DNA from: Candidatus Shapirobacteria bacterium
GTDB lineage: Bacteria; Patescibacteriota; Microgenomatia; UBA12405
Length of the DNA: 64,000 bases
NCBI GenBank assembly: GCA_028704635.1
Contig: JAQWFB010000001.1
Coordinates: forward strand, 5,541 to 69,540
Direction of reading: 5' to 3'
Position numbers and translations under genes: made by a program. This document shows positions 5,834 through 26,290 of the stretch, piece by piece. Each line of letters begins with the position of its first letter. The stretch's first letter is position 1. Under the pieces are notes generated by a model. The model was not told where the DNA came from. It did not search any database and saw only the letters and a list, made by a program, of their open reading frames with translations.

Positions 5834-6454
5834 TTACATTTCTTTAACTAAATTAAATTGATTTGAATTTTCACGCTTCTTTACAGCATTGTCTATATAC
5901 TTTTTGTAATTGTAATTTTTAATAAATTCATCAAAAGAAACAAGAGAAATGTAAGAATCTTTTAACTCATCATATACATTAGTGCATTGATGTAATTTAT
6001 ACGAATCTTTAATATTCATCATATTCTTTCTTACTAAATTTTCAAAATTTTTAATCGCTGTTAAAGGACAATTTTTAGAACATCGACAACAATTAAAAAT
6101 TCCCATTAAATAAGATTCTGCTTCTTTTGTATATAAAGCAACAACCCCATTTGTTCTATTATTTTCTCTATCCTCTAAGGAATATCGCAACTCATCATAT
6201 AACCAATCATCAATTTGATTATTACCATTTCTATCATAATTAATTGCATTTGGTGTAAGAATACAAATTGTTACAGATGTCTCTTTTAATTTACCGTAAA
6301 GGTATTCTTTAATAGTTTTTTCGGTTTGATTAGATCTATCTTCGTTTTCAGAATAGTTATTTATTGCAACAGTATCATCAAATAAATCATCCAATTCTTT
6401 CTTGTAATTGTTTCCATCACTAAATCTAAAAGATATAAACACATTTGTTGCCAT
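5834..6454 (-). CDS. TIR-domain protein (ThsB/DUF1863-like)
   Basis: N-terminal betaA VFISFRFSDG. Downstream SVTICILTPNAI, then DDWLYDELRYSL (W-x-x-E putative catalytic Glu helix). The start overlaps the stop of the upstream 3-TM gene (ATGA at 6454). Confidence 0.55.
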   Translation of the reverse strand: MATNVFISFRFSDGNNYKKELDDLFDDTVAINNYSENEDRSNQTEKTIKEYLYGKLKETSVTICILTPNAINYDRNGNNQIDDWLYDELRYSLEDRENNRTNGVVALYTKEAESYLMGIFNCCRCSKNCPLTAIKNFENLVRKNMMNIKDSYKLHQCTNVYDELKDSYISLVSFDEFIKNYNYKKYIDNAVKKRENSNQFNLVKEM

Positions 6455-6972
6455 TAGTATTGTTTAAATAAATAATAAAAATTTTCATTTCTAAAAGTAT
6501 TCTCTTTTTGGTTAATAAAAGTGTCATTTTTCCAGTAAATATCAATTTTATTAATATTTGAATAAAAAAATCCAAACAAAATTAATATTAATAACGGAAT
6601 ATAAAAAATATTCAATGTCTTCGAAAACATTGAATTAAGCCAACTATTTTTATTTTTTCTATAGTGTTCTGCTTTTAATGAGTAGTCAATTTTTTTGTCA
6701 TCTTTAATCAATCTAACCTCATCATAAAGTGCACGATAACATCTTTCTGTCGATAAAAAATAACCATCTAAAATCCAAAAAATTAAAATTATACAGATGG
6801 AGAATATAAAACAAAGATCATTTGAATCTTTAAACATGAAAGTAAATAACCCAACAATCAAAGTTATGGTCCACCCTTTTAACATAAAAAGATTATTACC
6901 CATACGAGTTACAATCGCCTGAATAAATTCCAAATGTTTTTGTTTATTAGTCATATAATTAACAGACACCAT
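6454..6972 (-). CDS. small 3-TM membrane protein co-transcribed with the TIR gene (candidate effector)
   Basis: Three predicted hydrophobic helices. There is 4-bp overlap with the downstream TIR ORF. Confidence 0.45.
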   Translation of the reverse strand: MVSVNYMTNKQKHLEFIQAIVTRMGNNLFMLKGWTITLIVGLFTFMFKDSNDLCFIFSICIILIFWILDGYFLSTERCYRALYDEVRLIKDDKKIDYSLKAEHYRKNKNSWLNSMFSKTLNIFYIPLLILILFGFFYSNINKIDIYWKNDTFINQKENTFRNENFYYLFKQY

Positions 6973-7075
6973 ACTTAATATTTCAAAGAGATTCTATCTA
7001 CTACCTATATAGTCAGTCAATATTGCAAAATATATCAAAATTTCATTTTGCAATTATTCCGCGGAGTAAAGTGTT

Positions 7076-7112
7076 ATTTTTCTCACCCCAACCTTAAAAG
7101 TTGCACTCATGG
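7076..7112. repeat. copy 1 of ttatttttctcacccc(a/g)accttaaaagttgcactcatg repeat
   Basis: Matches 26619-26656 at ~35/37 positions. Confidence 0.55.
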
Positions 7113-7128
7113 ATTATAAATCAAAAAA

Positions 7129-7152
7129 AATCCCCTAAAGCAGGGGATTTTT
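7129..7152. terminator. A-tract / hairpin (atcccct-aaagc-aggggat) / T-tract element, repeat family copy 2
   Basis: Same hairpin as 5138-5161. It lies immediately downstream of repeat 7076-7112. Confidence 0.4.
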
Positions 7153-7494
7153 GTATAAAGCGGGCCCTAGTGAACTATGTCAGCAACTACTATCAACATA
7201 ATCCAGGCTATAATTGCCTACTAGGATAGCTTTTCATGAAACATCAGGCCCCTTCCCTTTCTTATACGATTCCTATCTAAAAAACCATATTTTAATTGTG
7301 TTTTTTTACTATCCCTTACTAAGGATCCAAATCTTGCAAGTAATCTTTATTTTCCTTATAGATAAACACGACCACTTATTACTAAGTCGATTAGATAGCT
7401 TTGAGGGGGTGTGGGGAGAGTGTAGTTAGATTTTAAGGAAGTGATATTTTCAAAAAACCAAAAATTTTAAAACATGTGAATAAATTATAGTCAA

Positions 7495-8577
7495 TCAGTC
7501 ACCTATTGATTCCAGAATTGCTTTTGCAGTTAACTCTCCAAGTCTTGGAGGCACTGCATTTCCAATTTGTTTCGCAATATCACCAAAATTGCCTATAAAA
7601 ATAAAATCATCTGGAAATGTTTGTAGTCTAGCTGCTTCCCTTAAACTAATGGCCCTATCCTGTTCTGGATGTCCGAATCTACCTTTTGTAATCATACCGC
7701 ACCCTCCAGTCATGGTTGGAGATGGAGCGTCCCATCTCATTCGACCATAAACATCTTTATGTCCTGTGGTATTTTTATGACAGGTAAGAATTAATTTTTC
7801 TGGCCATGAAGTACGATCACCACCATTTTGTGGTGTATTTTTTATTCTTTGAAGGTTTATTTCTGCAAGTGATGCTGAACGGTGGAGCTTATCATAATTA
7901 TATGTTTCTCCTGCCTCGATTTTCGGTAAATCACCAATAGTGTTCTTAACCGTCATCCAAACTTTTAAAGTAGATTCTTTTTTAGCAGGATCGGCATGTG
8001 TTTGAGATAGAAAAACTGGTTCTTTTTTTCCTTTTATACCGATAATGACAACTCTTCTTCTGTGCTGTGGTACTCCATAATCAGCGGTATCGATTACATC
8101 ATATTTCAGTTTATAACCCATTTCTTTAATGTCCCCCAACACATCTTCAAGGATATTTTTGCCGATACCTTTAGCTAATCCTGGAACGTTTTCCATTACA
8201 AAAGCAACTGGTTTAACCTGTTTAATTATTTTAACCACTTCAAAAATAAGTTTGTTTCTAGGATCATTTCTTCTCTGGCTATTTCTTCGGGCATTAGAAA
8301 AACCTTGACAGGGAGGGCAGGCAATTAATACGATTTTGTCCTTTTTGGAGAGATTTCCAGCCTTCATAAGGTATTTACCGTCAACGTCACAGATGCTTTC
8401 TTTTATAACTTTACAATCCTTAAAATTAGCTTCAAATGATTTGCCTGCTATTTCATTGTTGTCAACGGCTACCCGAATATCAAAACCCATGTTTTTAAAT
8501 CCGAGAGCTGAACCTCCACACCCTGAAAATAGATCGATTACTTTATAGTTACTGTTCACATCATAAATATATAGCAT
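7495..8577 (-). CDS. DNA (cytosine-5)-methyltransferase
   Basis: Motif I DLFSGCGG, motif IV ACPPCQGFS, motif VI ENV, motif X QIGNAVPP. Confidence 0.85.
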   Translation of the reverse strand: MLYIYDVNSNYKVIDLFSGCGGSALGFKNMGFDIRVAVDNNEIAGKSFEANFKDCKVIKESICDVDGKYLMKAGNLSKKDKIVLIACPPCQGFSNARRNSQRRNDPRNKLIFEVVKIIKQVKPVAFVMENVPGLAKGIGKNILEDVLGDIKEMGYKLKYDVIDTADYGVPQHRRRVVIIGIKGKKEPVFLSQTHADPAKKESTLKVWMTVKNTIGDLPKIEAGETYNYDKLHRSASLAEINLQRIKNTPQNGGDRTSWPEKLILTCHKNTTGHKDVYGRMRWDAPSPTMTGGCGMITKGRFGHPEQDRAISLREAARLQTFPDDFIFIGNFGDIAKQIGNAVPPRLGELTAKAILESIGD

Positions 8578-8680
8578 TTCCTAGTGTAATTTCACAGACA
8601 ATTTTATTTTGATGATAAATCTAAAATTATTCCGAGGGTAATTTTACATGGTTTGATGTTACAATATTGCAATAATCAAG

Positions 8681-11317
8681 ATGAATTGGGAAAAAATTGA
8701 AGAATCCATTTTATTGTCATATCCTTTTTTCCGGAACTTAAATAGCAAAACTCAATTAACTTCCGGAGTACATCCTTTTGTGTTGTTGAATTCCTACCTA
8801 TGTATAAAATCCATTGAAACTTCACTTCCAAAAAAATTGTTAATAATTCTGCCTTTTAAAGCAGACATCGCCAAATGGGTATCTGTTGTGACAACTTTAA
8901 AACTTCTTAAGGAAGATTCCCTTGCTAACCAAGACATTAAAATAGAATATTTACCTGGGCAAAAACTACTTATCAATGGAGTTGTAGTCGAGTTTGTTGG
9001 AGAAGAAAATAATCCTTCCTACGGTTACCGCTTTATCATACGTTACTGGAACGATGATAAAAAACACCCTGGATACATTACGGACCATATACCTTGTGAA
9101 AATAACCAGATGTTTGAGATGGCAGACCAGAATTGTGAAATTAGTTCATATTCTAAGGTTGTAAAAGCATTGTTAGGTCTTGAAGAATCAAGTGTAGTTA
9201 CAAATGATATTCTTGGAATAAATTTTAGAAATACAATATCTAGATTTGAACGTAATGTAATCTTGGTATCTGGAATTGGAGAGACAAAAAGATTTGCGGA
9301 AATGAATACTGTTAACAATGTATTGGTCAGTGAGTTATTTCCGTGGGGTAAGTTGGATTACACGGGCGACACAACAGCATTATTTTATAAGGAAAAAGCA
9401 AAACCAAACTGCATCATTAGTTCCAATATGTTCGGAATCGAAGAATATATATCAAAAAAAGGAAAAAATTATGGAATTATTATTGATGGTATCGATAAAT
9501 GCACTGACAATCTCCAACAATTAGATGATTTGATCGACTCTGGAAATAGGATTGTTGTATTTTGCGACAGAAATGAACTCGATGAAGCGAATAAGTATTT
9601 AATTAATAGGGATTTCCTCGTTTGGTCATGGGATAAAAAGATGATTGCAGGGTTAACTTCAACTTTGTCTATTGGAGACATTAATAAGTCTTTCAATACC
9701 CAGTTAAAAAATTACTCTGAGTTGGGTATTAAGGTATTAAAAAGTAATAACCCAATAATTGAAGAATTAATCAATATTTCGTCTCCTGTTTTAAAAATTA
9801 ATCCAGAAGATTCAGGTCTTATTAATAAATTTAAATTCAATCTACTCTCTGCGATTAATGAAATAATTAGATTGGGATTTATACCCGACAACGAATATTT
9901 AACTAGTTTTCTAAAAAAATTGGAGGAATTAAAAAAAGAATACGGATTAATTAGCAACATGGCCAGCAATGATACTCGTGTTGGACTTACGAAAATTTTA
10001 GACATGTTAACAAATCTGAAAATTAATGATTTTGCTCACCCAGAAAGCAAAGCAAATAAAATTATTTCCTGGTTTAACAACTTGAGTGGTGACGACAAAA
10101 ATAAAAAATACATAACAATCTTTGATGACTTGAACCCCGCTCGACTTCACCAAGATCACTTCGCAAATTCAATCGATAAAGAAATAAAACTAGAAACGAT
10201 AGCTTTTGAAGATTTTATTATCTCCCACAATTTTGAAGAAGATGCCGTTATTTTTACCGGATGGCCAGGTAAAAAAAAGATGAAAATAATATCAAATATC
10301 AATGCGGCAAAAAATATGTTGTTTTTTCTGTATCCTCAGGAACAAAAATGGTTCAACTCATATATCAGAAACACCGAAAAATATAGCTTTGGAAAAAATG
10401 AACTTGATAAATTTGCGGAATATCTGGATGTACCAGTTATTGAAGAATTAAAAACAGCATTAACAGAGTACTCTGATCAAACGGAAAACATAATTGGAAT
10501 TGATGACATAACAGAGGCACAAGATACCTTATTAATAAGCTCATATTTACCAGACGATAATGAATGTAACAATCCAATACCGTCTAAATTAGTTGTTTTT
10601 AATAGAGATTATTTCTGGTACTCAACTGAGAACCATCGATTCATTGTTATTACGGATTTGATTGCTAATTGTACTGATGGACAAATAAAAACTTCAAGAC
10701 CAGAGGGTCTTCATGTGGGCGATACTGTTTTGATTAGGGAGTCAAATAAAGATTTAATCAGGGAAATTGCTGAAATTGATTTAAAAAATAGAGATGAAGA
10801 ATGGGCTATCGAAAAATCTAAAGTCTGGAAAGATGCACTGAAAACCGAATACAAAAAACAATATGAAAATATTTTTCGTTTAATCAGTGTGTTAAGAGAA
10901 GCTGGATGTAATAGACAAGTTCAAACCATTAAGCTTTGGCTCTTTGAAGATGACCGTATTGGTTTAAGGGATGAAAAGGATCTCGAATATATAGCGAAAG
11001 CAACTGGTTCAAAGGAAATGATTAATAACCTGGACAAAATTCGTGAAGCAATACATCTTGTCCGGGCAGCACATTTAAGAGCAGGTGACACACTCGCGAA
11101 AGAGCTTTTGAACCGATTGCCCGATGTTCTTAATGGTACAGGAAATAAAATCAGGTCAAGTATCGATCTTGGAGAATATGGTACAGCCTTTTTACTTAAG
11201 GTTATTGTTGTTGCCGATGACTATATTGATATCGAAAGTATTAAAGTTAATAAGTTACTAAATAAAAACAAATCAAATGATCAGACTCATACCTCCACTG
11301 TTGTCTTCAGAAAATAA
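8681..11317 (+). CDS. large hypothetical protein, first gene of the helicase/DUF1998 operon (DrmE-like by position only)
   Basis: 878 aa with no recognisable catalytic motif. The 3' end overlaps the next gene by 41 nt. Confidence 0.5.
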   Translation: MNWEKIEESILLSYPFFRNLNSKTQLTSGVHPFVLLNSYLCIKSIETSLPKKLLIILPFKADIAKWVSVVTTLKLLKEDSLANQDIKIEYLPGQKLLINGVVVEFVGEENNPSYGYRFIIRYWNDDKKHPGYITDHIPCENNQMFEMADQNCEISSYSKVVKALLGLEESSVVTNDILGINFRNTISRFERNVILVSGIGETKRFAEMNTVNNVLVSELFPWGKLDYTGDTTALFYKEKAKPNCIISSNMFGIEEYISKKGKNYGIIIDGIDKCTDNLQQLDDLIDSGNRIVVFCDRNELDEANKYLINRDFLVWSWDKKMIAGLTSTLSIGDINKSFNTQLKNYSELGIKVLKSNNPIIEELINISSPVLKINPEDSGLINKFKFNLLSAINEIIRLGFIPDNEYLTSFLKKLEELKKEYGLISNMASNDTRVGLTKILDMLTNLKINDFAHPESKANKIISWFNNLSGDDKNKKYITIFDDLNPARLHQDHFANSIDKEIKLETIAFEDFIISHNFEEDAVIFTGWPGKKKMKIISNINAAKNMLFFLYPQEQKWFNSYIRNTEKYSFGKNELDKFAEYLDVPVIEELKTALTEYSDQTENIIGIDDITEAQDTLLISSYLPDDNECNNPIPSKLVVFNRDYFWYSTENHRFIVITDLIANCTDGQIKTSRPEGLHVGDTVLIRESNKDLIREIAEIDLKNRDEEWAIEKSKVWKDALKTEYKKQYENIFRLISVLREAGCNRQVQTIKLWLFEDDRIGLRDEKDLEYIAKATGSKEMINNLDKIREAIHLVRAAHLRAGDTLAKELLNRLPDVLNGTGNKIRSSIDLGEYGTAFLLKVIVVADDYIDIESIKVNKLLNKNKSNDQTHTSTVVFRK

Positions 11318-13001
11318 AAGTAGCGGAGAGAGAAAACTATTTAATCTTTTTCTAAAAAGTGGAAATACTGATGATTGGACTGTTCTTCACTCATTAAATC
11401 TGAGTGAACATATAAATCAAATATGTGGAGAAATTGATTTTCTTGTTTTAGCCCCAAATTTAGGTATATTTTGCCTTGAGGTAAAGTCTGGGAACGTAAC
11501 ATGTCATGATGGGCTATGGATATATCGGGATAGATTTGGTGTTGACCATAAAAGCACCAAAGGTCCTTTCGTTCAAGTCAAAGATAATATGTTTAGTTTG
11601 ATCGAGTGGGTTAAAAAAAAGACTTCTAATAATCCAAAATTAATAAACATGTTATTCGGCTACGGAGTAGTATTTCCCGATGTTTCATTCAACATCGATA
11701 GTATCGAGTATGATCGATCATCCGTGTTTGACAATATGACTGGTTCTATCGAATCTTTTATCACAACTCTAGCTGAAAATACCAAAAAAAAAGAAGAGAA
11801 CTTAGGTAGAAAAAGATATTTACCATCACTAAAAGATATTGAAACTCTGGTCAGTATTCTAAGGCCTGAATTTGAAGTTTTCAGGAGCACTAAGGACATT
11901 TTAAATGATACCGAAGAAAAAATTAGTTCTTTCACGGAAGAACAATATAAATGTCTTGATTCTCTTAAAGATAATCCCCGTTGTTTATTTAATGGAGCCG
12001 CTGGAACTGGAAAGACGGTCATTGCCGTCGAATCCGTTAAAAGAAAAGTTTTTGATGAAAAGAGAGTGTTATTTATCTGTTTCAATTCTTTATTAAGTGA
12101 ATGGTTAAAATCCAGATTCACAGACAGTGAAAAAAAGTTTGTCACAATCGAAACACTTCCAGGTTATATGGAGAAAATAGCAGCCATTCCAGAATATATT
12201 AAACGCGACAACTATTATTTTGACCACGTATTACCAACAAAAGCCGCAGAATTGATTGTAAAAGACTTTAGTAAATTTGACTATCTGATCGTTGATGAGG
12301 GTCAGGACATAATTAGCGAAGTAAATTTTGCTTTTCTTGATAAGGTCTTAAAAAATGGAATAGCAAAAGGTTTCTGGGAAATTTATTGTGATATGGACCG
12401 TCAGTCATTATTTGCAAAACTATCACCAAAATTAATGAGAGAAAAAATCTCAAAATGGTCACCCAATGGTTTTGTATCTTATAAACTGAACATCAATTGC
12501 CGTAATACTAAAAATATTGCCGAGGAAATTTCTCTGGTATGCGGGTTTGAAAAAGACCAACTATTGCCAGGTAATATTGAGGGAAATCTACCGGTAAACT
12601 ATAAGTTTGTTGATCATGATCAGATTCCTTTTGAAATAGACAAAATAGTGGATTTTGTTTACTCAAAAAAGATTCCTTTAAACAGGATAACAGTGCTATC
12701 ACCAAAAAAATATCAGCTATCTGAGGCCTCCAAGATAAAAAGTAAATGTACAGTTTTAGAACGTAACAATCTATTTTCAATACCAGTCGATTCAATAACA
12801 TTTTCAACTATCGGAAAATTTAAAGGGTTGGAAAATTCTTTTATAGTTGTCACAGACTTTGATTCTATTGAAGAAGACTGTTTGGAAAAACTTTACGTCG
12901 CCATGTCTAGGGCAAAATATGGTCTATATTTGATTATGGGAAAAGAAGCCGAAAAAGATTATGATTCCATTGTTAGTAAAGTTAATAGCGTACAAAGATA
13001 A
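11277..13001 (+). CDS. NERD nuclease-related domain fused to UvrD/PcrA-like SF1 helicase core
   Basis: NERD: GEIDFLVLAPNLGIFCLEVKSG. Walker A NGAAGTGKTV, Walker B LIVDEGQDI, C-terminal LYVAMSRAKYGLYLI (UvrD_C motif). Confidence 0.7.
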   Translation: MIRLIPPLLSSENKSSGERKLFNLFLKSGNTDDWTVLHSLNLSEHINQICGEIDFLVLAPNLGIFCLEVKSGNVTCHDGLWIYRDRFGVDHKSTKGPFVQVKDNMFSLIEWVKKKTSNNPKLINMLFGYGVVFPDVSFNIDSIEYDRSSVFDNMTGSIESFITTLAENTKKKEENLGRKRYLPSLKDIETLVSILRPEFEVFRSTKDILNDTEEKISSFTEEQYKCLDSLKDNPRCLFNGAAGTGKTVIAVESVKRKVFDEKRVLFICFNSLLSEWLKSRFTDSEKKFVTIETLPGYMEKIAAIPEYIKRDNYYFDHVLPTKAAELIVKDFSKFDYLIVDEGQDIISEVNFAFLDKVLKNGIAKGFWEIYCDMDRQSLFAKLSPKLMREKISKWSPNGFVSYKLNINCRNTKNIAEEISLVCGFEKDQLLPGNIEGNLPVNYKFVDHDQIPFEIDKIVDFVYSKKIPLNRITVLSPKKYQLSEASKIKSKCTVLERNNLFSIPVDSITFSTIGKFKGLENSFIVVTDFDSIEEDCLEKLYVAMSRAKYGLYLIMGKEAEKDYDSIVSKVNSVQR

Positions 13002-16000
13002 ATGCCTTTTAAAGACCAATTAATCGATTTTCTTAAAAAGGGTCTAATGGGACCAAATCCAACAGAGGGTAATGTTCAGGAAAACGGCGAAGAAATAATA
13101 ATAGGTAGCAATCCTTGTGATAGATATTCACTTGGAGTTCTTTTCCCGCAAAGTTCAAATACTCCTAAAAAAGATGAAATTGAGGATATTGGAAGTGAAG
13201 AAGCAACTGAAGAAGTAGTTAATCTCGCAAATTCCATGGCTCCTTCTGCTATGGGATTTAGTTGTGGATTAATATCCCCATTTAATGATCTGATAATAGA
13301 AATAAAGGCTGGGACTTATCAAAAAGTCGATGATTATGAGAGTTCTGGAAGATACGCTTTTTTAAGGCATCAGATAAATTATGAAATAAAAATCAGCAAA
13401 GAATCATTATCAGCATGTGATGGTATTCTGCATTTTCCCATAAAAAACGGTGATGAGGAAACAAAATTAGGTTTAATACTTTTGAGAAGAAAAATTGGAT
13501 CCTTAACTCATGGAGAAGACCTGTTTACATTTTCTTTAGTCAATTATAATAACGAAGGACGTGATGAAAAATGTTTTTTCCAATGTCAGTTTATCGTTAA
13601 GTCTGTTGACGGAAAACCCTGTTTTGCACCTTACCCCGATATTTCTGAGGCTTTTGGCAACGACTATGACCGTCTTTTAAATGCATATCTGTATCGGGAT
13701 AAAAAGACTTTCGCAATAGGGCATGGATGCTCTCCGCTATGGAATGACACAAAGAACGATGTCTCAGAAATATGTGCAAATGCAATACCTTCATATGAAA
13801 TGAAACCAGTTATCCCTACAACTATTGAAGGTTGTTCACTTGGAATGTATGAAATGAGTGATGAAGGTAAAGTTGAAAATATTTTTGAAAAGATAGAAAC
13901 ACTTTGCCGTGAATATGAAAATTGGATTAATGGTCAACAAAGAATAATTGAAGTAGAAACAAATATAAAGTATAAAGAAATCGGTCAAAAAAACATCCTT
14001 AATTGTAAGATGTGTCTTGATAGAATGCGTGAGGGATTTACATTGTTGAAAACCGATTCGGTAGTATTGGAAGCGTTCCGTTTAATGAATCGGGCTATGT
14101 TGTTACAACAATTGCATTACAAAATTGATTTAAGGATTTGGGATGATAATGACGACATTGTCCAAGTGAAAATGCCTAAGTTGAACGACAAAAGCACCTG
14201 GCCTGACAAAGTTGGTAATTGGTATCCGTTTCAGTTGGCTTTTATCTTAATGAACTTGGACTCTATGTCTGATCCCAGCAGTAAATATCGGGAAATGGTC
14301 GACCTGATTTGGTTTCCTACTGGAGGCGGAAAGACTGAAGCATATTTAGGCTTGACTGCTTTTACTATCTTTCTAAAGAGATTGACTGATAAAAATGATG
14401 ACGGAACAACTGTTTTAATGCGATATACCCTGAGACTACTTACAAATCAGCAATTTCAAAGAGCGTCATCCTTAATATGTTCATGCGAATACATTAGGTC
14501 ATCAATTCCACAAAAATTGGGTGAAACAAAAATTACTATTGGCCTTTGGGCAGGTAGTGGTTTAACTCCTAATACTAGACCAGAAGCAGTCAGTAAATTT
14601 AAAAAATTGCTACAGGGACAGGATGATGTAAATTGTTTTTTAATCGATAAATGTCCATGGTGCGGTGCTCAAATGGGTTTTATTAAGAAAAAAAACATAA
14701 AAGCTAAAGGTTATAGGCAAATGTTACACCCGTCAACTGTTATTTTTCGCTGCTCAGACCAGGAATGTTTTTTTTCACATGAGGAAAGTCCTCTACCTTT
14801 ATTAGTAATTGATGAAGATATTTATGATAATCCTCCATCGTTGGTTATCGGAACAATAGATAAATTTGCAATGTTAGTTTGGAAACCAGAATCTGTACGA
14901 AAAATATTTGGATTTAGGGATAACGGAAGAGTTTTGCCGCCATCATTAATAATCCAAGATGAATTGCATTTGATTTCTGGCCCCCTTGGGTCGATTGCTG
15001 GAATGTACGAAGTATTAATTGAAGAATTATGCTCCCAGAAAAATAGTAGTGGAATAATAAAACCTAAAATTGTTGCCTCTACTGCTACTGTTAGTAGGGC
15101 CAAAGAACAGGTGAATGCCCTTTATGGCCGAGACGTTTTTATTCTTCCGCCACCAGCAACTAAAGCAAATGATTCTTTTTTTGCTAAAGAAGCCGTCGAT
15201 TTGCCAGGAAGAACTTATTTAGGCATCTATGCTCCATCGTTAAGTCATGCAACCGCTCATGTCAGAACGGTTTCTTTCCTATTGGAGGGAGTAAAATATA
15301 TACCAGCAGATCCGACTGTTAAAAACTATTATTGGACTTTATTGGATTACTTTAATAGTCTTCGGGAACTTGGGCATGCCAAAACAAGGATATCAGCAGA
15401 TATTCCAGAGTATCTGAATATTGTATATAGTTATCTTGGCCTGTTTCATGCTTCAATAGAGGAAAAGGCTAAACGAAGATTTATTAATCCAAGCAAATGT
15501 CCAGAGTTAACCAGTCGTGTAGACGAAATTTCTAAAGCTCTTAATGATCTAAAAGAACCATATTTATTGGAAAATTCTAAAGCATTGGATATTTGTCTTT
15601 GTACTAATATGATTTCCGTTGGCATTGATATTGATAGGTTAGGTTTAATGACTGTAGCTGGACAACCAAAGACAACAGCCGAATATATCCAAGCCACCAG
15701 CCGTGTTGGAAGAAGTAGTAAGGGACCAGGTTTGGTTGTAGCTATATTTAATACCCCTAAACCAAGAGATAGATCTCACTATGAAAATTTTCTCTCTTAC
15801 CACTCAAAAATTTATAGCTTTGTTGAGCCTACCAGCATCACTCCATTTTCCAGACCAGCAAGAGAAAGAGCTTTGCATGCACTTTTAATCGGATATATCA
15901 GATATTTTGGTTCCACAGACAATCTTTTATCTCCAAAAAACATTAGTGATCAGAATATATTTACCCGTTTTACAGAAATGATTAAAAATAGAGTTATAAA

Positions 16001-16265
16001 AATTGACCCAGATGAAATGGAAGGATGTTTAACAGAAATTGATAAATTAAAACGGCGTTTGTTTAGATTACATGCCGAAAAATACTACGGTAACGGTATA
16101 GAAAGATGGGCAAATTGTCTTATCTATCCCTATGGTGTAGTTCCTCCAGATTCTGATACAAGAAACAGAATGTGGCCCACACTTCAGTCGATGAGAAATG
16201 TAGACCTGACTTGTCAGATAGAACCAGATACTTATTATTTAGATCCTCCAGATGTCACAATATAG
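13002..16265 (+). CDS. DrmA-like DExH-box SF2 helicase with internal Cys4 insertion
   Basis: Motif I WFPTGGGKTEAYL, motif II IIQDELHLISG, motif III STAT, motifs V/VI GIDIDRLG...YIQATSRVGRS. A CPWCGAQ...FRCSDQEC zinc knuckle lies between motifs I and II. The start abuts the previous stop. Confidence 0.7.
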   Translation: MPFKDQLIDFLKKGLMGPNPTEGNVQENGEEIIIGSNPCDRYSLGVLFPQSSNTPKKDEIEDIGSEEATEEVVNLANSMAPSAMGFSCGLISPFNDLIIEIKAGTYQKVDDYESSGRYAFLRHQINYEIKISKESLSACDGILHFPIKNGDEETKLGLILLRRKIGSLTHGEDLFTFSLVNYNNEGRDEKCFFQCQFIVKSVDGKPCFAPYPDISEAFGNDYDRLLNAYLYRDKKTFAIGHGCSPLWNDTKNDVSEICANAIPSYEMKPVIPTTIEGCSLGMYEMSDEGKVENIFEKIETLCREYENWINGQQRIIEVETNIKYKEIGQKNILNCKMCLDRMREGFTLLKTDSVVLEAFRLMNRAMLLQQLHYKIDLRIWDDNDDIVQVKMPKLNDKSTWPDKVGNWYPFQLAFILMNLDSMSDPSSKYREMVDLIWFPTGGGKTEAYLGLTAFTIFLKRLTDKNDDGTTVLMRYTLRLLTNQQFQRASSLICSCEYIRSSIPQKLGETKITIGLWAGSGLTPNTRPEAVSKFKKLLQGQDDVNCFLIDKCPWCGAQMGFIKKKNIKAKGYRQMLHPSTVIFRCSDQECFFSHEESPLPLLVIDEDIYDNPPSLVIGTIDKFAMLVWKPESVRKIFGFRDNGRVLPPSLIIQDELHLISGPLGSIAGMYEVLIEELCSQKNSSGIIKPKIVASTATVSRAKEQVNALYGRDVFILPPPATKANDSFFAKEAVDLPGRTYLGIYAPSLSHATAHVRTVSFLLEGVKYIPADPTVKNYYWTLLDYFNSLRELGHAKTRISADIPEYLNIVYSYLGLFHASIEEKAKRRFINPSKCPELTSRVDEISKALNDLKEPYLLENSKALDICLCTNMISVGIDIDRLGLMTVAGQPKTTAEYIQATSRVGRSSKGPGLVVAIFNTPKPRDRSHYENFLSYHSKIYSFVEPTSITPFSRPARERALHALLIGYIRYFGSTDNLLSPKNISDQNIFTRFTEMIKNRVIKIDPDEMEGCLTEIDKLKRRLFRLHAEKYYGNGIERWANCLIYPYGVVPPDSDTRNRMWPTLQSMRNVDLTCQIEPDTYYLDPPDVTI

Positions 16266-18093
16266 AAAAAAAAGACCAGTAAGACAGGGACAACTTATAT
16301 CACCATGGGGTGTAGGACAAATGATACCTTTTCCAGAAGGGGACTCTCTCATGATAGCTGGACTTGATGCTTGGCAGGAAAAATATGGACATCCAGGAGA
16401 AGAGAAATACTTTGTCCAGGAGTTAAGATTGGAGAAAAGATTAGGGGTTAAACATTTTAGATTACCCCCTAATTTTATAGAGGAAGAAAGGGATCAGGCC
16501 AAGACCGTGCCTGCGATCAGATTTCCACAATGGCACTATTGCAAACACTGTGGTTCTATGGAGAAGTTAAGTATTTTTAGTACCCAATTACCCCACTGTA
16601 AAGGATTGCCATATGATGATATAAGTTGTCAAAATACACCTGAAAAAAGAAGGCTAAAGATGATACCAGTCCGCTTTGTAGTTATCTGTCCTGATGGACA
16701 TATCGATGATTTTCCATTTATGGAATGGGTGCATAGTAAAAGTAAAATGGTAGAAACCCCAGATTGTCGGTTAAGATACAAAATTAGAAGTGCTGGAAGT
16801 TCACTCGGTGCCATCAAATTAATCTGTAGTTGTGGAGCCAAGTCCAGTATGCATGGGTCATTTAATAAAGGGGGCTTAAAAAATATTTTAAAATGTAAAG
16901 GGTATAAACCGTGGCTAGGTAAAATTGAAGAATTCGATTCCGAACCGTGTGATAAGGAGTTGACTGTTGCTCAAAAAGGCGGATCAAACGTATATTTTCC
17001 AAATGTAATAAGCTCAATTTATATTCCCAGCGAATTTAGACCTGAGATTCATGAAAAATACCTTGATGAATATTGGAGTTACTTGACTGGGGTTTTAAAA
17101 AATGACGTATTAGATTTTGAAAGGTTTAAAAACGTTGCACTTAAAAACGGATTAGATCCCCAGGAGTTTTATGATAATGGGTTAAAACGCTATAAGGAAG
17201 CCACTAATTACGATGAGAGCCTTACAGAAAACGATATCGAAAAGGAAATTAGAAAACAAGAATATATTTACCTCACAGGAAATAAAAATATTGACAACGA
17301 TTATTTGACTCAAAAAACGTCACCTATTGATGGTTATAGTAAATTAATCCAAAGTTTTTGCAACCAAATATCTCTTGTTCACCGTCTTAAGGAAACCAGA
17401 GTTTTTACAGGATTTTCAAGATTAAACTCTAATGATGGTAAAACTTTATCTCAAAGAAAAAGTGAATTGTCATTAAAAAAAATTGATTGGCTTCCAGCTA
17501 TAACTGTTAGCGGTGAAGGTATTTTTCTAAAATTTAAAGACAGCCTAATCAAAACGTGGGAAACAAATGCTCTTGTAAAAGAAAGGGCAGAAATTATTAA
17601 TAACAACTTTGCTAATTATGCCCGCCAATTCAATTTACCCGAAAGAACAGTTAGCCCTGGATACATAATGGTCCACACTTTTTCCCATATTTTAATTAAT
17701 GAACTTAGCCTTGTTTGTGGATATGGAAGTTCGTCTTTAAGAGAGAGGATATATTTTAATGAAGATCAGGGCGAAAGTTATTTTGGTTTGTTGATCTACA
17801 CAGCATCTGGAGATTCTGAAGGATCTCTTGGTGGCCTAGTAAAACAGGGGTTACCCAGTCGACTAAACGAAATGATAATGTCCGCCTTAAATAAAGCAAG
17901 TTGGTGCTCGGTCGATCCAATCTGTATTGAAAGCCGTGGTCAAGGATTGGGATCGTGCAATTTAGCCGCATGCCACAACTGTGTCCTTCTACCAGAAACA
18001 TCCTGCGAACAATCAAATAGATTACTCGACCGTGCCATGTTAATCGGTACATTGGAAAACCATGAGATTGGTTTCTTTTCTAATATGGAATAA
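16252..18093 (+). CDS. DUF1998-family protein (DrmB-like), N-terminal multi-Cys region
   Basis: C-terminal WCSVDPICIESRGQGLGSCNLAACHNCVLLPETSCEQSNRLLDRAMLIG is the DUF1998 hallmark. There are 14 nt of overlap with the upstream helicase. Confidence 0.7.
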   Translation: MSQYRKKRPVRQGQLISPWGVGQMIPFPEGDSLMIAGLDAWQEKYGHPGEEKYFVQELRLEKRLGVKHFRLPPNFIEEERDQAKTVPAIRFPQWHYCKHCGSMEKLSIFSTQLPHCKGLPYDDISCQNTPEKRRLKMIPVRFVVICPDGHIDDFPFMEWVHSKSKMVETPDCRLRYKIRSAGSSLGAIKLICSCGAKSSMHGSFNKGGLKNILKCKGYKPWLGKIEEFDSEPCDKELTVAQKGGSNVYFPNVISSIYIPSEFRPEIHEKYLDEYWSYLTGVLKNDVLDFERFKNVALKNGLDPQEFYDNGLKRYKEATNYDESLTENDIEKEIRKQEYIYLTGNKNIDNDYLTQKTSPIDGYSKLIQSFCNQISLVHRLKETRVFTGFSRLNSNDGKTLSQRKSELSLKKIDWLPAITVSGEGIFLKFKDSLIKTWETNALVKERAEIINNNFANYARQFNLPERTVSPGYIMVHTFSHILINELSLVCGYGSSSLRERIYFNEDQGESYFGLLIYTASGDSEGSLGGLVKQGLPSRLNEMIMSALNKASWCSVDPICIESRGQGLGSCNLAACHNCVLLPETSCEQSNRLLDRAMLIGTLENHEIGFFSNME

Positions 18094-18274
18094 CATAAAG
18101 TAAATCCTTTATTGAGAAGTCTTAATAAAAAATGACAAATCGATATTTTAATCAGTGTGCCAAACAAATCATTTAAAAAAAAAAACGGTTCATCACGAAC
18201 AAATATAACCACTAAATAATAATCTCCGAACAACTATTTTGTGTATGATAGTAAAGTAGTAAATTACGTTCTTA

Positions 18275-19471
18275 TTACTTATCCTCATAATCCTTTAATG
18301 TGTACTCTTCTTGATATTCTTTGATTTTGTTTAAAATTTTATTTTGACTGTCTACGGCGTAGACTTTTACAATTCCCATCGTACCAGGAGATGGTGCTCC
18401 TCCACCTGATAATTGTGATTTAACTACTATATTATTTCCAATCACCTTAACTCTAATGTCAGTTCCATCTTCAATTAAAAGATTTGTATTATCATCGACT
18501 ATAGTTGATATGGATAACGTTTGACCGTGACAGCTTGAACAACCTTCTCCATTTAAAAACAAAGCTTGTAGGGTTAATTTTCCAACAGTAAATATTTGAC
18601 TTTTTAAAATTACTTCCCTATATTCATTAACTTTAATTAAAGTTTTGTTTTGATTATCTACTTCGTAGACTTTTACATTAATTGCGTCTTCTCCTGTTCC
18701 CACCATGTCTGATTTGAATCTAACCTCAATAGTATTTTTGTCTACTCTAACATTGATTCCATAACCTTTTTCTTTTAAAAACAAATTATCTTTATCAAAA
18801 ATATATAGTTCCTGGGAAACACTACTAGAAATAGGTATCGTCACTAAACTTTCTAGTTTTGACTCATCAACAACTAATTTAGTTTTATTCAATTTCCATA
18901 GACTCTGATTACCTACCAACTTTGAAATTAATGAATAGCTGTTTAAATATTTACTATCTTCCTTAGACAAGGTGTCATCACGGCGTGGATTGATGTTTTC
19001 CTTAATCTCTCCAGTTATTGGATTCACTATTAAACGGTAAGAAGCCGAATAACTTCCACGGTCTGGTTCATTGTTAGACAACTCAATATTTATTCCATCT
19101 ACTACCTTGGCCGAAATTAAACTAGCATTGGCCTGACCCTGTTGGAATAGTTTGGGATAATTATCCTTTCTTACAGTTAAATCAGGCTTAAAATTGTTCT
19201 CACTTTTATTACCCTCAGTGGGATTAATAAAAATAGAACCTTCTGTTAATTGAATTATTAAAACTCCTTTAGGAGTATCTAGGGAAACACTATAATCCAA
19301 TGGTTTGCTTTTATCCTCAGGAACTACAGTTTTTGAATTGTTTTCAATATCAGTAATAACTTCTCTTGGAATGTGTCGACTTATCTTTTCTCTGACTTTA
19401 CTAAAAAAACCAGCAACTAAACAAAAAACAAAGAATAGTATTAGAATTGAAAATAATTTATTTTTAGTCAT
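18275..19471 (-). CDS. secreted/lipid-anchored hypothetical protein
   Basis: N-terminal signal/TM LFSILILFFVFCLVAGFF, then a beta-rich sequence with no catalytic motif. Confidence 0.4.
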   Translation of the reverse strand: MTKNKLFSILILFFVFCLVAGFFSKVREKISRHIPREVITDIENNSKTVVPEDKSKPLDYSVSLDTPKGVLIIQLTEGSIFINPTEGNKSENNFKPDLTVRKDNYPKLFQQGQANASLISAKVVDGINIELSNNEPDRGSYSASYRLIVNPITGEIKENINPRRDDTLSKEDSKYLNSYSLISKLVGNQSLWKLNKTKLVVDESKLESLVTIPISSSVSQELYIFDKDNLFLKEKGYGINVRVDKNTIEVRFKSDMVGTGEDAINVKVYEVDNQNKTLIKVNEYREVILKSQIFTVGKLTLQALFLNGEGCSSCHGQTLSISTIVDDNTNLLIEDGTDIRVKVIGNNIVVKSQLSGGGAPSPGTMGIVKVYAVDSQNKILNKIKEYQEEYTLKDYEDK

Positions 19472-19590
19472 AGCTTAATTTACTCTAATCATTTCATTAA
19501 CTACTAGTTAGTTAAAATATACCATTTTTAGGCTTAATTATTAACCAACAGTTAATAAACTAATTCCAGTCAAATTGTTACCTTCTATCA

Positions 19591-19809
19591 ATGGAAGACC
19601 GTAAGGTAACGAATAAAGACTTAAAATTTGGTAAGAGACTTCAACGAGTCAGAAAATCGGCTGGTTTCACTCAAGAAAAACTAGCAGAGGGGACAAGACT
19701 AAGCACAACCTTCATAGGATTACTTGAAATTGGTCAAAGACGACCAAGTATGAAAACACTCCAAAAAATCGCATCAACATTGAAAGTAGATGTAAAAGAT
19801 TTGTTTTGA
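19591..19809 (+). CDS. XRE-family HTH transcriptional regulator
   Basis: FTQEKLAEGTRLSTTFIGLLEIGQRRPSMKTLQKIASTL is a Cro/C1-type HTH. It is a paralog of 26391-26600 (shared C-terminal D[IV]KDLF). Confidence 0.7.
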   Translation: MEDRKVTNKDLKFGKRLQRVRKSAGFTQEKLAEGTRLSTTFIGLLEIGQRRPSMKTLQKIASTLKVDVKDLF

Positions 19810-22091: not shown

Positions 22092-23699
22092 TTGGAATAT
22101 TCGGTTATATCAATTAATATCAATATGAAAACAAATCAAGACAATTCGTTAAAGTATTGCCAATACTGTCGAAAATCATCCGAGAGTAAAGAAAAACAGG
22201 CCTTATCGATTCCTGATCAAATCAAGGTTTGTGGAGAATATGCTGTCAAAAACGAACTAAATATTGTTGCAAAAATAGAAGAATCAAAATCTTCTTACAA
22301 ACCCCATATCAGACCTGAATTCGATAAAATTTTAAAAATGATTGGCGATAAAAAAATTGATGCAATTCTGACATGGAAACTTGATCGACTATGCCGTAAT
22401 CCAGAAGAAGGTGGAATTCTACTTCAATTACTTCAAGACGGAAAAATAAAAGAAATTAGGACACCAATGGGAGATATTTATACCCAAGAAAGTGATCATT
22501 TAATTCTCCAAATTCATTTTGGAATGGCAAATCAATATTCACGAGCAATCAGTCAAAACGTTCGTCGTGCTCTCGTATGTAAAGCCGAAAGGGGAGAGTT
22601 TACTAAACCTGCTCCACTTGGCTATGAAGGAATCGGTGAAAGTAAAAGTCGTTTGATTAAACCTCATAAATTTGAAGCACCACTTCTAGTTCAAGCTTAT
22701 GAATTAGCTAAATCTGGTCGGTACTCACTAAGTAATATTCAAAAATATTTAAAAGATAACGGTTTAAAAACCAAAAGAGGGAAAGATTTAAGCAAAAGCC
22801 ATTTATATCGAATCCTTACCAGTTCAATTTATTATGGTGTTTTCAACCATAATGGCATTGCTTATCAAGGTAACTATGAACCACTTATCAATAAGTCAAC
22901 CTTTGATGAAGTTCAAATCGCTTTGGGTGTTAGGTCTAAGCCCAAGAAATTAATTTGGGAGTCGGTTTACAATGGCTTATTCTTCTGTCCAGATTGTGGC
23001 TGTGCCATAACCACTGTAAACAAAAAGAAGTTAATTAAAAAAACTAATAAATATGAAACTTACACTTATCTAGTGTGTACTCATCGAAAGGGAAATTGCC
23101 AACAAAAACCAATATCTGCAGATGATTTTGATAAACAAATTATGGCAAAAATCGGGCCACTTAAACTTACCGAAAGAAAATGGGAATTAGCATTAAAACT
23201 ATTTCGAGCCAAAAATGCCAATCAAAATCAAACCCAATCTAAATTTATTGATAACCTTCATTTGCAACTCAAGATTCATCAAGAAAAATTAAATCGACTG
23301 ATTAATATGAGAGCAGGAGACGAAATTACTGCTGAAGAGTTCAAAGAACAAAAATTAATTATCCTTAATGAACAAACACGAATCAGTGAGGCAATCAATC
23401 GATACAACGAAACCAATCAAAATTGGTTGGAACTGTCAGAAAACTTCATAAATAAGGTATTCTTAGCCAAAAAAATATTATCCGATGGTTTACCAGAAGA
23501 AAAAAAGAAACTGATTGATGAGGTCGGTCGGAACTTATTTCTAAACAATAAAAAAGTGGAACTTACCTTAAAAGAACCATACATAGCCATGACAAATCCA
23601 GCTATTTCTAATAATATGCGGGCAATGTGGTCCGAACTTGGAACTTATTTAGATAGGAATGATACAATCAAATATGAATTGTCCACATTGTTTACATAG
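22092..23699 (+). CDS. large serine recombinase (integrase), element 1
   Basis: Resolvase N-domain YCRKSSESKEKQ (Ser nucleophile motif) and LDRLCRN. Recombinase domain, zinc ribbon CPDCGC...C, then a coiled-coil tail. The 3' end spans the right att-like repeat. Confidence 0.85.
   Translation: MEYSVISININMKTNQDNSLKYCQYCRKSSESKEKQALSIPDQIKVCGEYAVKNELNIVAKIEESKSSYKPHIRPEFDKILKMIGDKKIDAILTWKLDRLCRNPEEGGILLQLLQDGKIKEIRTPMGDIYTQESDHLILQIHFGMANQYSRAISQNVRRALVCKAERGEFTKPAPLGYEGIGESKSRLIKPHKFEAPLLVQAYELAKSGRYSLSNIQKYLKDNGLKTKRGKDLSKSHLYRILTSSIYYGVFNHNGIAYQGNYEPLINKSTFDEVQIALGVRSKPKKLIWESVYNGLFFCPDCGCAITTVNKKKLIKKTNKYETYTYLVCTHRKGNCQQKPISADDFDKQIMAKIGPLKLTERKWELALKLFRAKNANQNQTQSKFIDNLHLQLKIHQEKLNRLINMRAGDEITAEEFKEQKLIILNEQTRISEAINRYNETNQNWLELSENFINKVFLAKKILSDGLPEEKKKLIDEVGRNLFLNNKKVELTLKEPYIAMTNPAISNNMRAMWSELGTYLDRNDTIKYELSTLFT
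23623..23655. repeat. right copy of 33-bp direct repeat (att-like)
   Basis: caatgtggtccgaacttggaacttatttagata matches 5173-5205. Confidence 0.6.
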
Positions 23700-24354
23700 T
23701 TTTCACGATAGTCCTTCAAGATTAAAAACAGGTGGTTGGATGTATTATGATAAAACAATTTGGAATTTTGAATATCAAGAATGCCCAGAATGTAAAAAAT
23801 TAATAGGAAAAATTCTCATATCAGAAGATGATGGAATAAAAGAAATAATGGCATATCCTAAAAAAAATTCGCGAACAGTATTGCCTGACTTTATAGATAA
23901 ACAATTTTTAGAAGACTACAACGAAGCATGCTCTGTAATTAATGAAAGTCCCAAAGCAAGTGCAGCACTTAGCCGTAGATGTTTGCAAAATATATTAAGG
24001 GAAAAAGCCATGATTAAACGCTTTGACACAATACAAGGCAAATATATAACAGAAAAAATAACTCCATCTGATTTATCTAAAGAAATTCAACAAGTACTAG
24101 ATATGGGCAACCTTACCTCCAATATAAGTGAAGGATTAGATGCAATTAGGGCGATTGGTAATTTCGCAGCACACCCAATTAAAAGTACTAATACAGGAGA
24201 AATTTTTAGTGTTGAAACTGGAGAAGCTGAATGGAATTTAGAAATACTTGAAAGTTTGTTTGACTATTACTTTATTCAGCCAAAAAATATTCAAGATAAA
24301 AAAAATGCATTGAATATTAAGCTCAAATCAGCCGGTAAACCTGAAATCAAATAA
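23659..24354 (+). CDS. zinc-ribbon + DUF4145-like domain protein
   Basis: N-terminal CPHC...CPEC zinc ribbon. ASAALSRRCLQNILRE resembles the DUF4145 core helix. Confidence 0.45.
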   Translation: MIQSNMNCPHCLHSFHDSPSRLKTGGWMYYDKTIWNFEYQECPECKKLIGKILISEDDGIKEIMAYPKKNSRTVLPDFIDKQFLEDYNEACSVINESPKASAALSRRCLQNILREKAMIKRFDTIQGKYITEKITPSDLSKEIQQVLDMGNLTSNISEGLDAIRAIGNFAAHPIKSTNTGEIFSVETGEAEWNLEILESLFDYYFIQPKNIQDKKNALNIKLKSAGKPEIK

Positions 24355-25564: not shown

Positions 25565-26290
25565 CTAACAAATTTGTATTTTCCTACACAAGTAAACCAA
25601 TTCAGATGAATCTTTAGGGTCTTCTTGATGAAAATTTTCAAGTTTATCAACTAAAAACTTGTGTAAGAATTTACTGTTTCTAATTAAACTTAAAATTATT
25701 TTCGGGACAAACTTACTTATCGTTGTAATTTCATTACTTGAACTAACTCCTTTAATTTCCAAAATTTCAAACGAATTTCTTTCTAATAATTGCTTCATCT
25801 CTTCCAAAGTAAATTCTTTAATATGAAATTTATTCAATCCTAAAGATTTATCTTTATTTGGAGTTGTTAAAAACAATAAACCACCTGTTGTTAAAGACTT
25901 GGATAAATTTGATAAATAAAATTCATAATTTTTCAAATGTTCCAGCACATCCAAAGAAATTACTAAATCATAATAATTAGATTCAAATTCTGTTTTATTA
26001 AAATCTTTAATTCCAAAATTAAGTGATTTACTTTGATTTTTATCTTGGCAATAATTAATTGCTTCTTTGTCAATATCAAAAGCATCAACCTTTTTTGCTC
26101 CTAAAGATAAAAGAATTGGTTCTGTTAATCCATACCCACACCCAGCATCTAAAACACATTTATTTAATGCCGAAGGTATAAGAGTGGAAACTTTATCATG
26201 ATATTTTTTCAACCAATATAATTCAGAATTATTTGGGTTATATCTTTCAGTTGAAGCTATCCCTTTCTTTAAATTTTTGACACCTTTCAT
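25565..26290 (-). CDS. class I SAM-dependent methyltransferase (small-molecule/RNA type)
   Basis: Motif I VLDAGCGYGL, acidic loop DAFDID, motif DLVISLDVLEHL. Confidence 0.65.
   Translation of the reverse strand: MKGVKNLKKGIASTERYNPNNSELYWLKKYHDKVSTLIPSALNKCVLDAGCGYGLTEPILLSLGAKKVDAFDIDKEAINYCQDKNQSKSLNFGIKDFNKTEFESNYYDLVISLDVLEHLKNYEFYLSNLSKSLTTGGLLFLTTPNKDKSLGLNKFHIKEFTLEEMKQLLERNSFEILEIKGVSSSNEITTISKFVPKIILSLIRNSKFLHKFLVDKLENFHQEDPKDSSELVYLCRKIQIC

Follow-up and report, generated by a model that had tools for sequence, protein, structure and literature searches.

In a 64-kb stretch of DNA from a Candidatus Shapirobacteria bacterium (contig JAQWFB010000001.1; the whole stretch, at its full length, is referred to as the window), the gene at 11277-13001 (+) encodes a NERD nuclease domain fused to a superfamily 1 (SF1) helicase core. 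As judged by sequence comparison, its product, hereafter the NERD-helicase, is very probably an integral component of a DISARM subtype that lacks the PLD nuclease DrmC. The fuller statement, in which it would serve as the integral nuclease-motor of a DrmC-less, class-2-type DISARM system made up of DrmMII, DrmE, the NERD-helicase, DrmA and DrmB, is favoured with some reserve, and the prospect that the predicted enzyme is the DNA-degrading effector is about even.

The fusion protein and its operon

The gene occupies exactly one reading frame, running from ATG to TAA, and all the motifs quoted in the original prediction were found in it: GEIDFLVL (aa 51-58), GIFCLEVKSG (aa 63-72), GAAGTGKT, DEGQD and LYVAMSRAK. 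The domain search that had been proposed along with them recovered both halves of the protein by profile, in Pfam as well as in PADLOC. The NERD family (PF08378) scored 47.1 bits, well clear of its gathering score (22.1), and the signature of PD-(D/E)xK nucleases is present as GEID54F ... LE68VK70. In the helicase half, ResIII (aa 208-341) and UvrD_C_2 (28.5 versus 27.4, aa 508-553) were also above the Pfam threshold, with AAA_19, AAA_12 and SLFN-g3_helicase slightly below it, and the SF1 motif set is complete and conserved, comprising motif Q, Walker A, Walker B (DExx) and motifs IV, V and VI. The best PADLOC match was RTasNERD-Hel, followed by the candidate ‘C3a187 NERD+UvrD’ (2e-17), and NCBIfam holds no model for the protein.

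The helicase had been described as UvrD-type, and of this description the SF1 core stood and the UvrD label did not. Membership of the UvrD/Rep/PcrA group (SF1A) finds little backing in Pfam: PF00580 gave no match, UvrD_C (PF13361) reached 16.1 bits against a cut-off of 25.6, and UvrD_C_2 alone passed, narrowly. The core of approximately 350 aa also leaves scant space for the 1B and 2B accessory domains. An AlphaFold2 model of the protein, with a mean predicted local distance difference test (pLDDT) of 80.8, was matched by Foldseek with probability 1.00 to many SF1 helicases; the lowest E-values belonged to SLFN11/SLFN14 (4.5e-19 for SLFN11) and to the Upf1/Ighmbp2 helicases, with UvrD (TM score 0.46-0.47) and Dna2 (1.1e-11) close after. 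The motor is thus best described, from its predicted features, as a generic compact SF1 core that is not specifically UvrD-type. Dna2, AddAB/RecBCD and SLFN11/SLFN14 likewise combine a nuclease with an SF1 motor, but at 11-16% identity, and with different domain order, accessory domains and roles, the likeness is one of fold only. Identity with GajB of the Gabija system was considered and rejected, the matches being partial (best 1.2e-9, over aa 332-486) and no GajA-like gene being adjacent.

Relatives of the protein number in the thousands; the closest are approximately 43% identical and even in length, and an exhaustive search returned 1,218 clusters at 50% identity with E<=1e-30. The NERD-helicase aligns over its full length with relatives of 550-610 aa. 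Across 86 full-length relatives, down to approximately 22% identity, the NERD-domain residues E52, D54, E68, K70 and Q100 were unchanged in every one, as were Q223, G245-K246-T247, D340, Q343, D344 and R409 of the helicase; E341, K516, G517 and R545 were near-invariant, R545 being kept in 84 of the 86. Because the catalytic residues are invariant over this range, strong purifying selection is indicated, at the level of sequence, on both the predicted nuclease and the predicted ATPase activities.

The neighbours of the gene form, as judged from their profile matches, a class-2-type DISARM system. The original prediction of a DISARM-like operon was borne out, with DrmMII, DrmE, DrmA and DrmB all matched by profile (Table 1), so that the window holds both the DrmA and DrmB pair and the class 2 markers DrmMII and DrmE. 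Further support came from Pfam DrmE_C on the DrmE product (8.7e-9) and, for the methylase, from Pfam DNA_methylase (6.2e-72), PADLOC MTase_II (1.2e-100), the DrmMII models (to 3.5e-56) and NCBIfam dcm (6.8e-58). The fusion gene had been placed between an “orphan gene” and DrmA. The position is correct, and the supposed orphan is a full-length DrmE scoring more than three times its cut-off. DrmE, the NERD-helicase, DrmA and DrmB constitute a same-strand block of four genes whose frames overlap or abut: the start of the NERD-helicase gene overlaps the final 41 nt of DrmE, its TAA abuts the ATG of DrmA (junction AGA TAA ATG), and DrmA and DrmB overlap by 14 nt. A terminator scan of 7000-19800 found no strong internal terminator in the operon, and a sigma-70 promoter scan of the same interval was uninformative in this AT-rich DNA (44 sites versus 51 expected).

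Table 1. Features of the DISARM operon and of the NERD-helicase, in window coordinates.
Feature	Position	Strand	Evidence or remark
DrmMII-type C5 cytosine DNA methyltransferase	7495..8577	-	Divergent from operon; 103-bp shared upstream region
DrmE, 878 aa	8681..11317	+	NCBIfam DrmE_fam (NF038316) 2.6e-76, 257.6 bits vs cut-off 80, aa 37-860
NERD nuclease-SF1 helicase fusion (574 aa)	11277..13001	+	PADLOC RTasNERD-Hel 4.6e-44, full length; Pfam
NERD (PD-(D/E)xK) nuclease domain, aa 16-117	11322..11627	+	Pfam NERD 4e-12
Predicted catalytic E52/D54 ... E68-x-K70 of NERD domain	11430-11486	+	
SF1 helicase core, aa 208-553	11898..12935	+	Pfam ResIII, AAA_19, UvrD_C_2; Foldseek
Q motif Q223; NCRNT aa 407-411; TIGKFKGLE aa 511-519			Helicase core of NERD-helicase
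Walker A GAAGTGKT, aa 240-247	11994-12017	+	
Walker B DEGQD, aa 340-344	12294-12308	+	
Motif VI LYVAMSRAK, aa 539-547	12891-12917	+	
DrmA short form, SF2 helicase	13002..16265	+	PADLOC DrmA 1.7e-212; NCBIfam DISARM_DrmAS 3e-262, 873 bits
DrmB (DUF1998/MZB)	16252..18093	+	PADLOC DrmB 2.1e-78; NCBIfam DrmB_fam 1.3e-139, 467 bits; Pfam MZB 1.7e-8

Recurrence beside DrmA and DrmB, and the missing DrmC

A survey of whether the fusion accompanies DrmAB-like pairs elsewhere had been suggested, and it revealed that the two co-occur across phyla. The same operon was found in Bacillota, Patescibacteria, Actinomycetota, Deinococcota and Pseudomonadota, RefSeq plasmids included. In the first three contexts recovered (Paenibacillus melissococcoides, a Patescibacteria metagenome-assembled genome and a metagenomic contig) DrmE, the NERD-helicase, DrmA and DrmB stood together with a C5 methylase near, and a C5 methyltransferase is present in nearly all related loci. 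Two layouts can be distinguished. The alpha layout, that of the window, reads (methyltransferase)-DrmE-NERD-helicase-DrmA-DrmB; the beta layout, seen in L014, L015, L018, L028 and L093, reads (methyltransferase-DrmE or UvrD-like helicase)-DrmA-DrmB-NERD-helicase. In beta loci the NERD-helicase gene begins 4-45 nt past DrmB, which is where annotated DrmC begins in class 1 plasmids: drmC follows DrmB directly in Nostoc C057 and Microvirga, and in a Pseudanabaena class 1 plasmid a small toxin-antitoxin pair lies between the two.

The frequency of the association was estimated in three ways. A scan of species-representative genomes with generic Walker A/B patterns gave at least 25 relatives, a sparse sample, and among the matches listed 8 of 25 (22-40% identity) adjoin DrmA/DrmB. 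A metagenome scan was seeded with NERD-domain patterns taken from a four-sequence alignment, a seven-sequence alignment having proved too divergent for this use, and yielded 80 loci, 68 of them with enough flanking DNA to judge. Drm genes were linked in 59 of these 68 (87%), a share that covers the nearest clade only, the loci having been chosen by similarity to alpha-type NERD domains and near-duplicate contigs having been kept; 42 were alpha, 1 was beta and 16 had DrmE upstream at a contig end, and the remaining 9 carried no Drm gene. In a reverse survey of 64 PLSDB plasmids with a DrmB relative (E<1e-40; adjacency by coordinates), the NERD-helicase adjoined DrmB in 9. Rhodococcus opacus B4 pROB02 is alpha, the Rhizobium, Shinella and Azospirillum plasmids are beta, and the Deinococcus psychrotolerans plasmid is probably an alpha locus spanning the record origin.

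On other DrmAB plasmids the slot is taken by DrmC or by different genes, such as a DEAD/DEAH helicase in a Tsukamurella plasmid, and in a Bacillus toyonensis plasmid two hypothetical proteins are the alternative neighbours of DrmAB. Given such varied occupants, the DrmAB core looks modular.

Several related observations on these loci can be recorded. After DrmB in Photobacterium there is an AAA ATPase with a hypothetical protein, and each of two Bacillus plasmids has a pair of hypothetical proteins (approximately 327 and 508 aa), whose genes precede DrmA on one plasmid and follow DrmB on the second. Two-gene cassettes of this kind, located at L119 10809-13633, L118 10930-13448 and L113 2960-5469, suggest interchangeable accessory modules beside DrmAB. 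In the proteobacterial beta loci L111 and L117, and in the actinobacterial L116, which has no NERD-helicase, a 600-930-aa ‘UvrD-helicase domain-containing protein’ directly precedes DrmA and so occupies the position of DrmE (L111, L116 and L117 are Rhizobium rhizogenes, Tsukamurella tyrosinosolvens and Azospirillum plasmids), and these loci may represent yet another DISARM-like subtype, one that has three or four helicases. Another gene set, at L065 439-10851, opens with a close NERD-helicase relative (34% identity), after which come a NERD-protein kinase (mad6-like, 9e-31), a mad7-like protein and an unassigned open reading frame (ORF) of 918 aa; on this evidence the same nuclease-helicase has been recruited also to a MADS-like, methylation-associated system.

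The nearest homologue from a cultivated organism, that of P. melissococcoides (L001/L002 3166-10013), belongs to a system that is probably inactivated, because its DrmE is in three pieces, split by an insertion sequence (DDE_Tnp_1_2 transposase) and an RVT_1 gene. This reverse transcriptase gene may also account for spurious labelling of NERD-helicases as ‘RT-associated’. In L010 the NERD-helicase itself is frameshifted.

That the operon lacks DrmC had been part of the original prediction, and across the 64-kb window no trace of it was recovered: the PLD motif HxKx4D...GSxN had 0 matches, tblastn with a real DrmC-like protein gave nothing below E=5, and a hidden Markov model built from three annotated DrmC proteins did not match. 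When this model was run on 123 loci together with the window, it matched its three source loci and L092 alone, and L092 was also the single locus of 109 with the strict PLD motif. The ORF there encodes a true PLDc_2 protein, whose resemblance to DrmC is weak. A DrmC-like gene lies beside a NERD-helicase in 1 of approximately 45 loci. Around 43 NERD-helicase DISARM operons, the 181 non-core ORFs lying up to 3.5 kb away were tallied by Pfam family, and no more than 3 had PLDc_2, including a PLD-DEAD-HNH fusion. The most frequent neighbour (21 of the 181) was the very-short-patch repair endonuclease Vsr, which is expected beside C5 methylases. NERD-helicase and DrmC are, then, almost mutually exclusive.

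The possibility that an ORF of 398 aa at 18275-19471 (-), convergent with DrmB, is a divergent DrmC was weighed and dismissed, as the ORF lies on the opposite strand, has a hydrophobic N-terminal segment and shows neither a PLD motif nor a profile match. It contains internal similar repeats, …VKVYEVDNQNKTLIKVNEY… and …VKVYAVDSQNKILNKIKEY…, has no Pfam or PADLOC match, and is probably a secreted or surface protein outside DISARM.

The evolutionary coupling of the components was assessed by mirror-tree analysis of pairwise distance matrices from 38 loci. The NERD-helicase correlated with DrmA at r=0.93 and with DrmB at r=0.91 (Mantel p<=0.0005), the obligate pair DrmA-DrmB reaching r=0.97 in the same analysis; such values are inflated by shared ancestry and linkage, by which the controls are affected likewise. 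In matched subsets, the correlation with DrmA/B was 0.90-0.95 for the NERD-helicase, 0.82-0.87 for DrmE and 0.70-0.76 for the methyltransferase. In a neighbour-joining tree, which is crude, being identity-based and without support values, alpha-type proteins form one large clade. A few Drm-less copies are nested inside this clade, which suggests that they arose by secondary detachment. The beta-type proteins are scattered among non-DISARM relatives, in three or more positions of greater divergence, a spread that suggests recruitment on several occasions or else an ancient association followed by losses.

Proposed role and its alternatives

Class 2 DISARM of Bacillus paralicheniformis, described by Ofir et al. 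2018 as reported in two later accounts (10.1101/2021.12.28.474362; PMC9142583), consists of DrmE-DrmA-DrmB-DrmC-DrmMII. The window shares with it DrmMII, DrmE, the short form of DrmA and DrmB, in a tight cluster and with strong profile scores, which amounts to four of the five published genes. It differs in the absence of the PLD protein DrmC and in the addition of the NERD-SF1 helicase, placed between DrmE and DrmA here and after DrmB in beta loci. Like DrmC, the NERD-helicase is a predicted nuclease encoded with DrmAB, and in the beta layout it sits within a few nucleotides of DrmB. The two are nevertheless unrelated, one having a PLD and the other a PD-(D/E)xK fold; moreover, the NERD-helicase is approximately 2.2 times larger, has a predicted ATP-driven motor of its own and would, by family precedent, be metal-dependent. 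Its divergence closely follows that of DrmAB, whereas DrmC can be dispensed with and was not co-purified with DrmAB (PMC9142583).

A mechanism can be outlined from what has been established for other DISARM systems. Methylation by DrmMII protects self DNA (PMC9142583; 10.1101/2021.12.28.474362), and DrmAB is an auto-inhibited helicase complex that is released by unmethylated 5'-overhang single-stranded DNA (PMC9142583). The authors of the DrmAB structure regarded the question of the nuclease as a mystery and suggested that host PLD enzymes are borrowed (PMC9142583). In the system of the window, host DNA would be marked through C5 methylation by DrmMII, and DrmAB with DrmE would load onto unmodified invader DNA or its single-stranded 5' ends, as in Serratia DrmAB. 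The NERD-helicase would then provide cleavage and translocation, nominally the task of DrmC in canonical DISARM operons, and, like Dna2, AddAB or Nhi, would degrade the invading DNA processively. In this scheme we infer that the protein cuts DNA, acts downstream of DrmAB and physically contacts the complex.

Fusions of NERD and SF1 helicase domains have already been noted in defence islands, as the PADLOC candidate C3a187, as a partner of UG34 reverse transcriptases (PMC9226505) and among ‘Nhi-like’ proteins, for which NERD is listed (PMC10952713). The RTasNERD-Hel profile (PADLOC PDLC03813; cluster 485 beside UG34 reverse transcriptases) shares the NERD and helicase architecture and aligns over positions 1-518 of 519 (PMC9226505). 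Its reverse transcriptase association rests on 7 of 17 UG34 members (PMC9226505), whereas no reverse transcriptase adjoins the gene in the window or in the alpha and beta loci, the sole one seen being that of L001/L002, and RVT_1 fell outside the 25 most frequent families in both Pfam censuses of flanking ORFs. As a DISARM component, no description of the gene was found in the literature, although a mention in the original DISARM paper (Ofir 2018) or its supplement is possible. The published descriptions consulted name DrmABC as the core and make no mention of the NERD-helicase (PMC9142583; 10.1101/2021.12.28.474362). A 2025 survey of the YprA family says of DISARM that a PLD nuclease is ‘typically’ present; it names NERD solely in connection with TALON, an unrelated group of systems, and its supplementary tables contain no ‘NERD’ or ‘DrmE’ entries.

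Nhi is a plausible mechanistic parallel and also the source of an unlikely alternative, namely that the NERD-helicase is an independent, self-sufficient Nhi-like defence gene nested in a DISARM operon. Nhi combines an N-terminal nuclease with a C-terminal SF1 helicase in one polypeptide, defends alone against phages and degrades phage replication intermediates (PMC11084316), so that degradation of phage DNA intermediates is plausible by analogy for the present protein too. Unrelated defence genes have been documented inside DISARM operons (10.1101/2024.01.29.577857), the ‘C3a187 NERD+UvrD’ candidate that matches the protein is a stand-alone one, and family members without Drm genes exist (L061, L070, L049, L065, L080). 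Nhi, however, is a single-gene system, whereas the NERD-helicase is operonic with DrmE, DrmA and DrmB in the window and is likewise operonic in 87% of the closest informative loci. For an embedded passenger one would not expect a constant slot in different phyla, a coding sequence that overlaps or abuts its neighbours, a co-divergence with DrmA/B tighter than that of the accepted DISARM genes DrmE and DrmMII, or an anticorrelation with DrmC. The nesting of detached copies inside the alpha clade suggests secondary escape, not ancestral independence, and no Nhi-named model matched in PADLOC v2.0.0 at E<=10, a release not confirmed to contain one.

It is also conceivable, if quite improbable, that the protein is integral to the system and acts upstream, either by resecting or nicking the ends of invading DNA, so that 5' single-stranded overhangs free the DrmA trigger loop and activate DrmAB, or as a second motor comparable to the SNF2 helicase DrmD of class 1. 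The first version fits the activation of DrmAB by unmethylated 5'-overhang single-stranded DNA (PMC9142583) and the dominant alpha layout, in which the NERD-helicase is transcribed before DrmA and overlaps DrmE. The second draws on the extra helicase DrmD and on the UvrD-like helicase that replaces DrmE in proteobacterial beta loci, which together show that the DrmAB core has taken on further motors repeatedly; the invariant ATPase motifs would suit a function as motor just as well. Present data agree with upstream and downstream action alike, but upstream action leaves the near-constant absence of DrmC and the placement in the DrmC slot of beta loci unexplained. A decaying remnant, or chance adjacency in a crowded defence island, deserves hardly any credence. 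Damaged relatives do occur, as the split DrmE of P. melissococcoides and the L010 frameshift demonstrate, and the window is indeed rich in other defence genes. The ORF is nevertheless intact and full length with all its catalytic residues invariant, and the adjacency repeats in dozens of loci from at least five phyla. Through this conservation, the metagenome linkage and the co-divergence, the remnant and chance readings are effectively refuted.

The proposal that the NERD-helicase is the integral nuclease-motor of this DISARM subtype has to be set against several points. That it replaces DrmC as effector is a suggestion drawn from comparative genomics, and the limits attached above to the metagenome share and to the mirror-tree correlations apply to it. 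Because L092 carries both a NERD-helicase and a DrmC-like PLD protein, the two are not strictly exclusive. DrmC was dispensable in both DISARM classes tested (PMC9142583; 10.1101/2021.12.28.474362), and taking its place therefore does not prove an essential effector role. DrmE may itself hold a cryptic nuclease. Finally, relatives are found by themselves amid housekeeping genes (L061, L070) or accompanied by MADS-like genes (L065), a DpdH-like ATPase (L080) or a DEDDh exonuclease (L049), and the family is reported with UG34 reverse transcriptases (PMC9226505); from such occurrences away from DISARM it follows that the family can work without DrmAB. A broader formulation is offered tentatively, at somewhat less than even confidence: DrmAB could be a modular sensing platform whose effector cassettes share the same slot (DrmC, the NERD-helicase, an AAA ATPase with its partner, other helicases), the NERD-helicase being obligatory and physically coupled in its own subtype.

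Surroundings of the operon and significance

The operon lies in a defence island, marked by a ThsB-like TIR protein, a PDC-M50A protein, a PD-T7-4-like gene and a serine recombinase. The ThsB-like protein is full length (5834-6454, -; PADLOC ThsB 2e-82) and is directly preceded, in a shared operon, by the 172-aa PDC-M50A candidate-defence protein (6454-6972, -; 2.7e-44). ThsA is absent, and the pair may constitute a distinct TIR-based two-gene system next to DISARM. At 22092-24354 (+), a large serine recombinase (Resolvase, Recombinase and Zn_ribbon_recom) overlaps the start of a DUF4145/PD-T7-4-like gene (7e-17). This recombinase and the slightly higher GC content of the DISARM block (0.33-0.37 versus 0.30-0.32 in the flanks) suggest that the island was acquired on a mobile element. 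A 241-aa ORF at 25565-26290 (-) partially matches the MADS mad2 methyltransferase (2.8e-15; profile positions 281-426 of 492) and may be a fragment or a small orphan methyltransferase. Downstream of the C5 methylase there is a strong terminator hairpin (7126-7152), and no Vsr-sized ORF was found beside the methylase (6972-7495).

These findings bear on annotation as well as on mechanism. NCBIfam, PADLOC and DefenseFinder-style rules carry no DISARM label for the NERD-helicase, and current tools would call such loci an incomplete DISARM in which a gene is embedded whose best match is the DRT-associated ‘RTasNERD-Hel’ of PADLOC. On the reading favoured here, the window holds a complete five-gene defence system in a metagenome-assembled genome from the small-genome Patescibacteria, and the broad DrmC-less subtype to which it would belong in every case includes a nuclease-motor that co-evolves and has its active sites intact. 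It thereby supplies a concrete, mutable nuclease candidate for the killing step of a widespread system. If the broader, modular formulation is true, this subtype would be the first form of DISARM with an identifiable and mutable DNA-destroying enzyme, and it would resolve how DISARM removes phage DNA.

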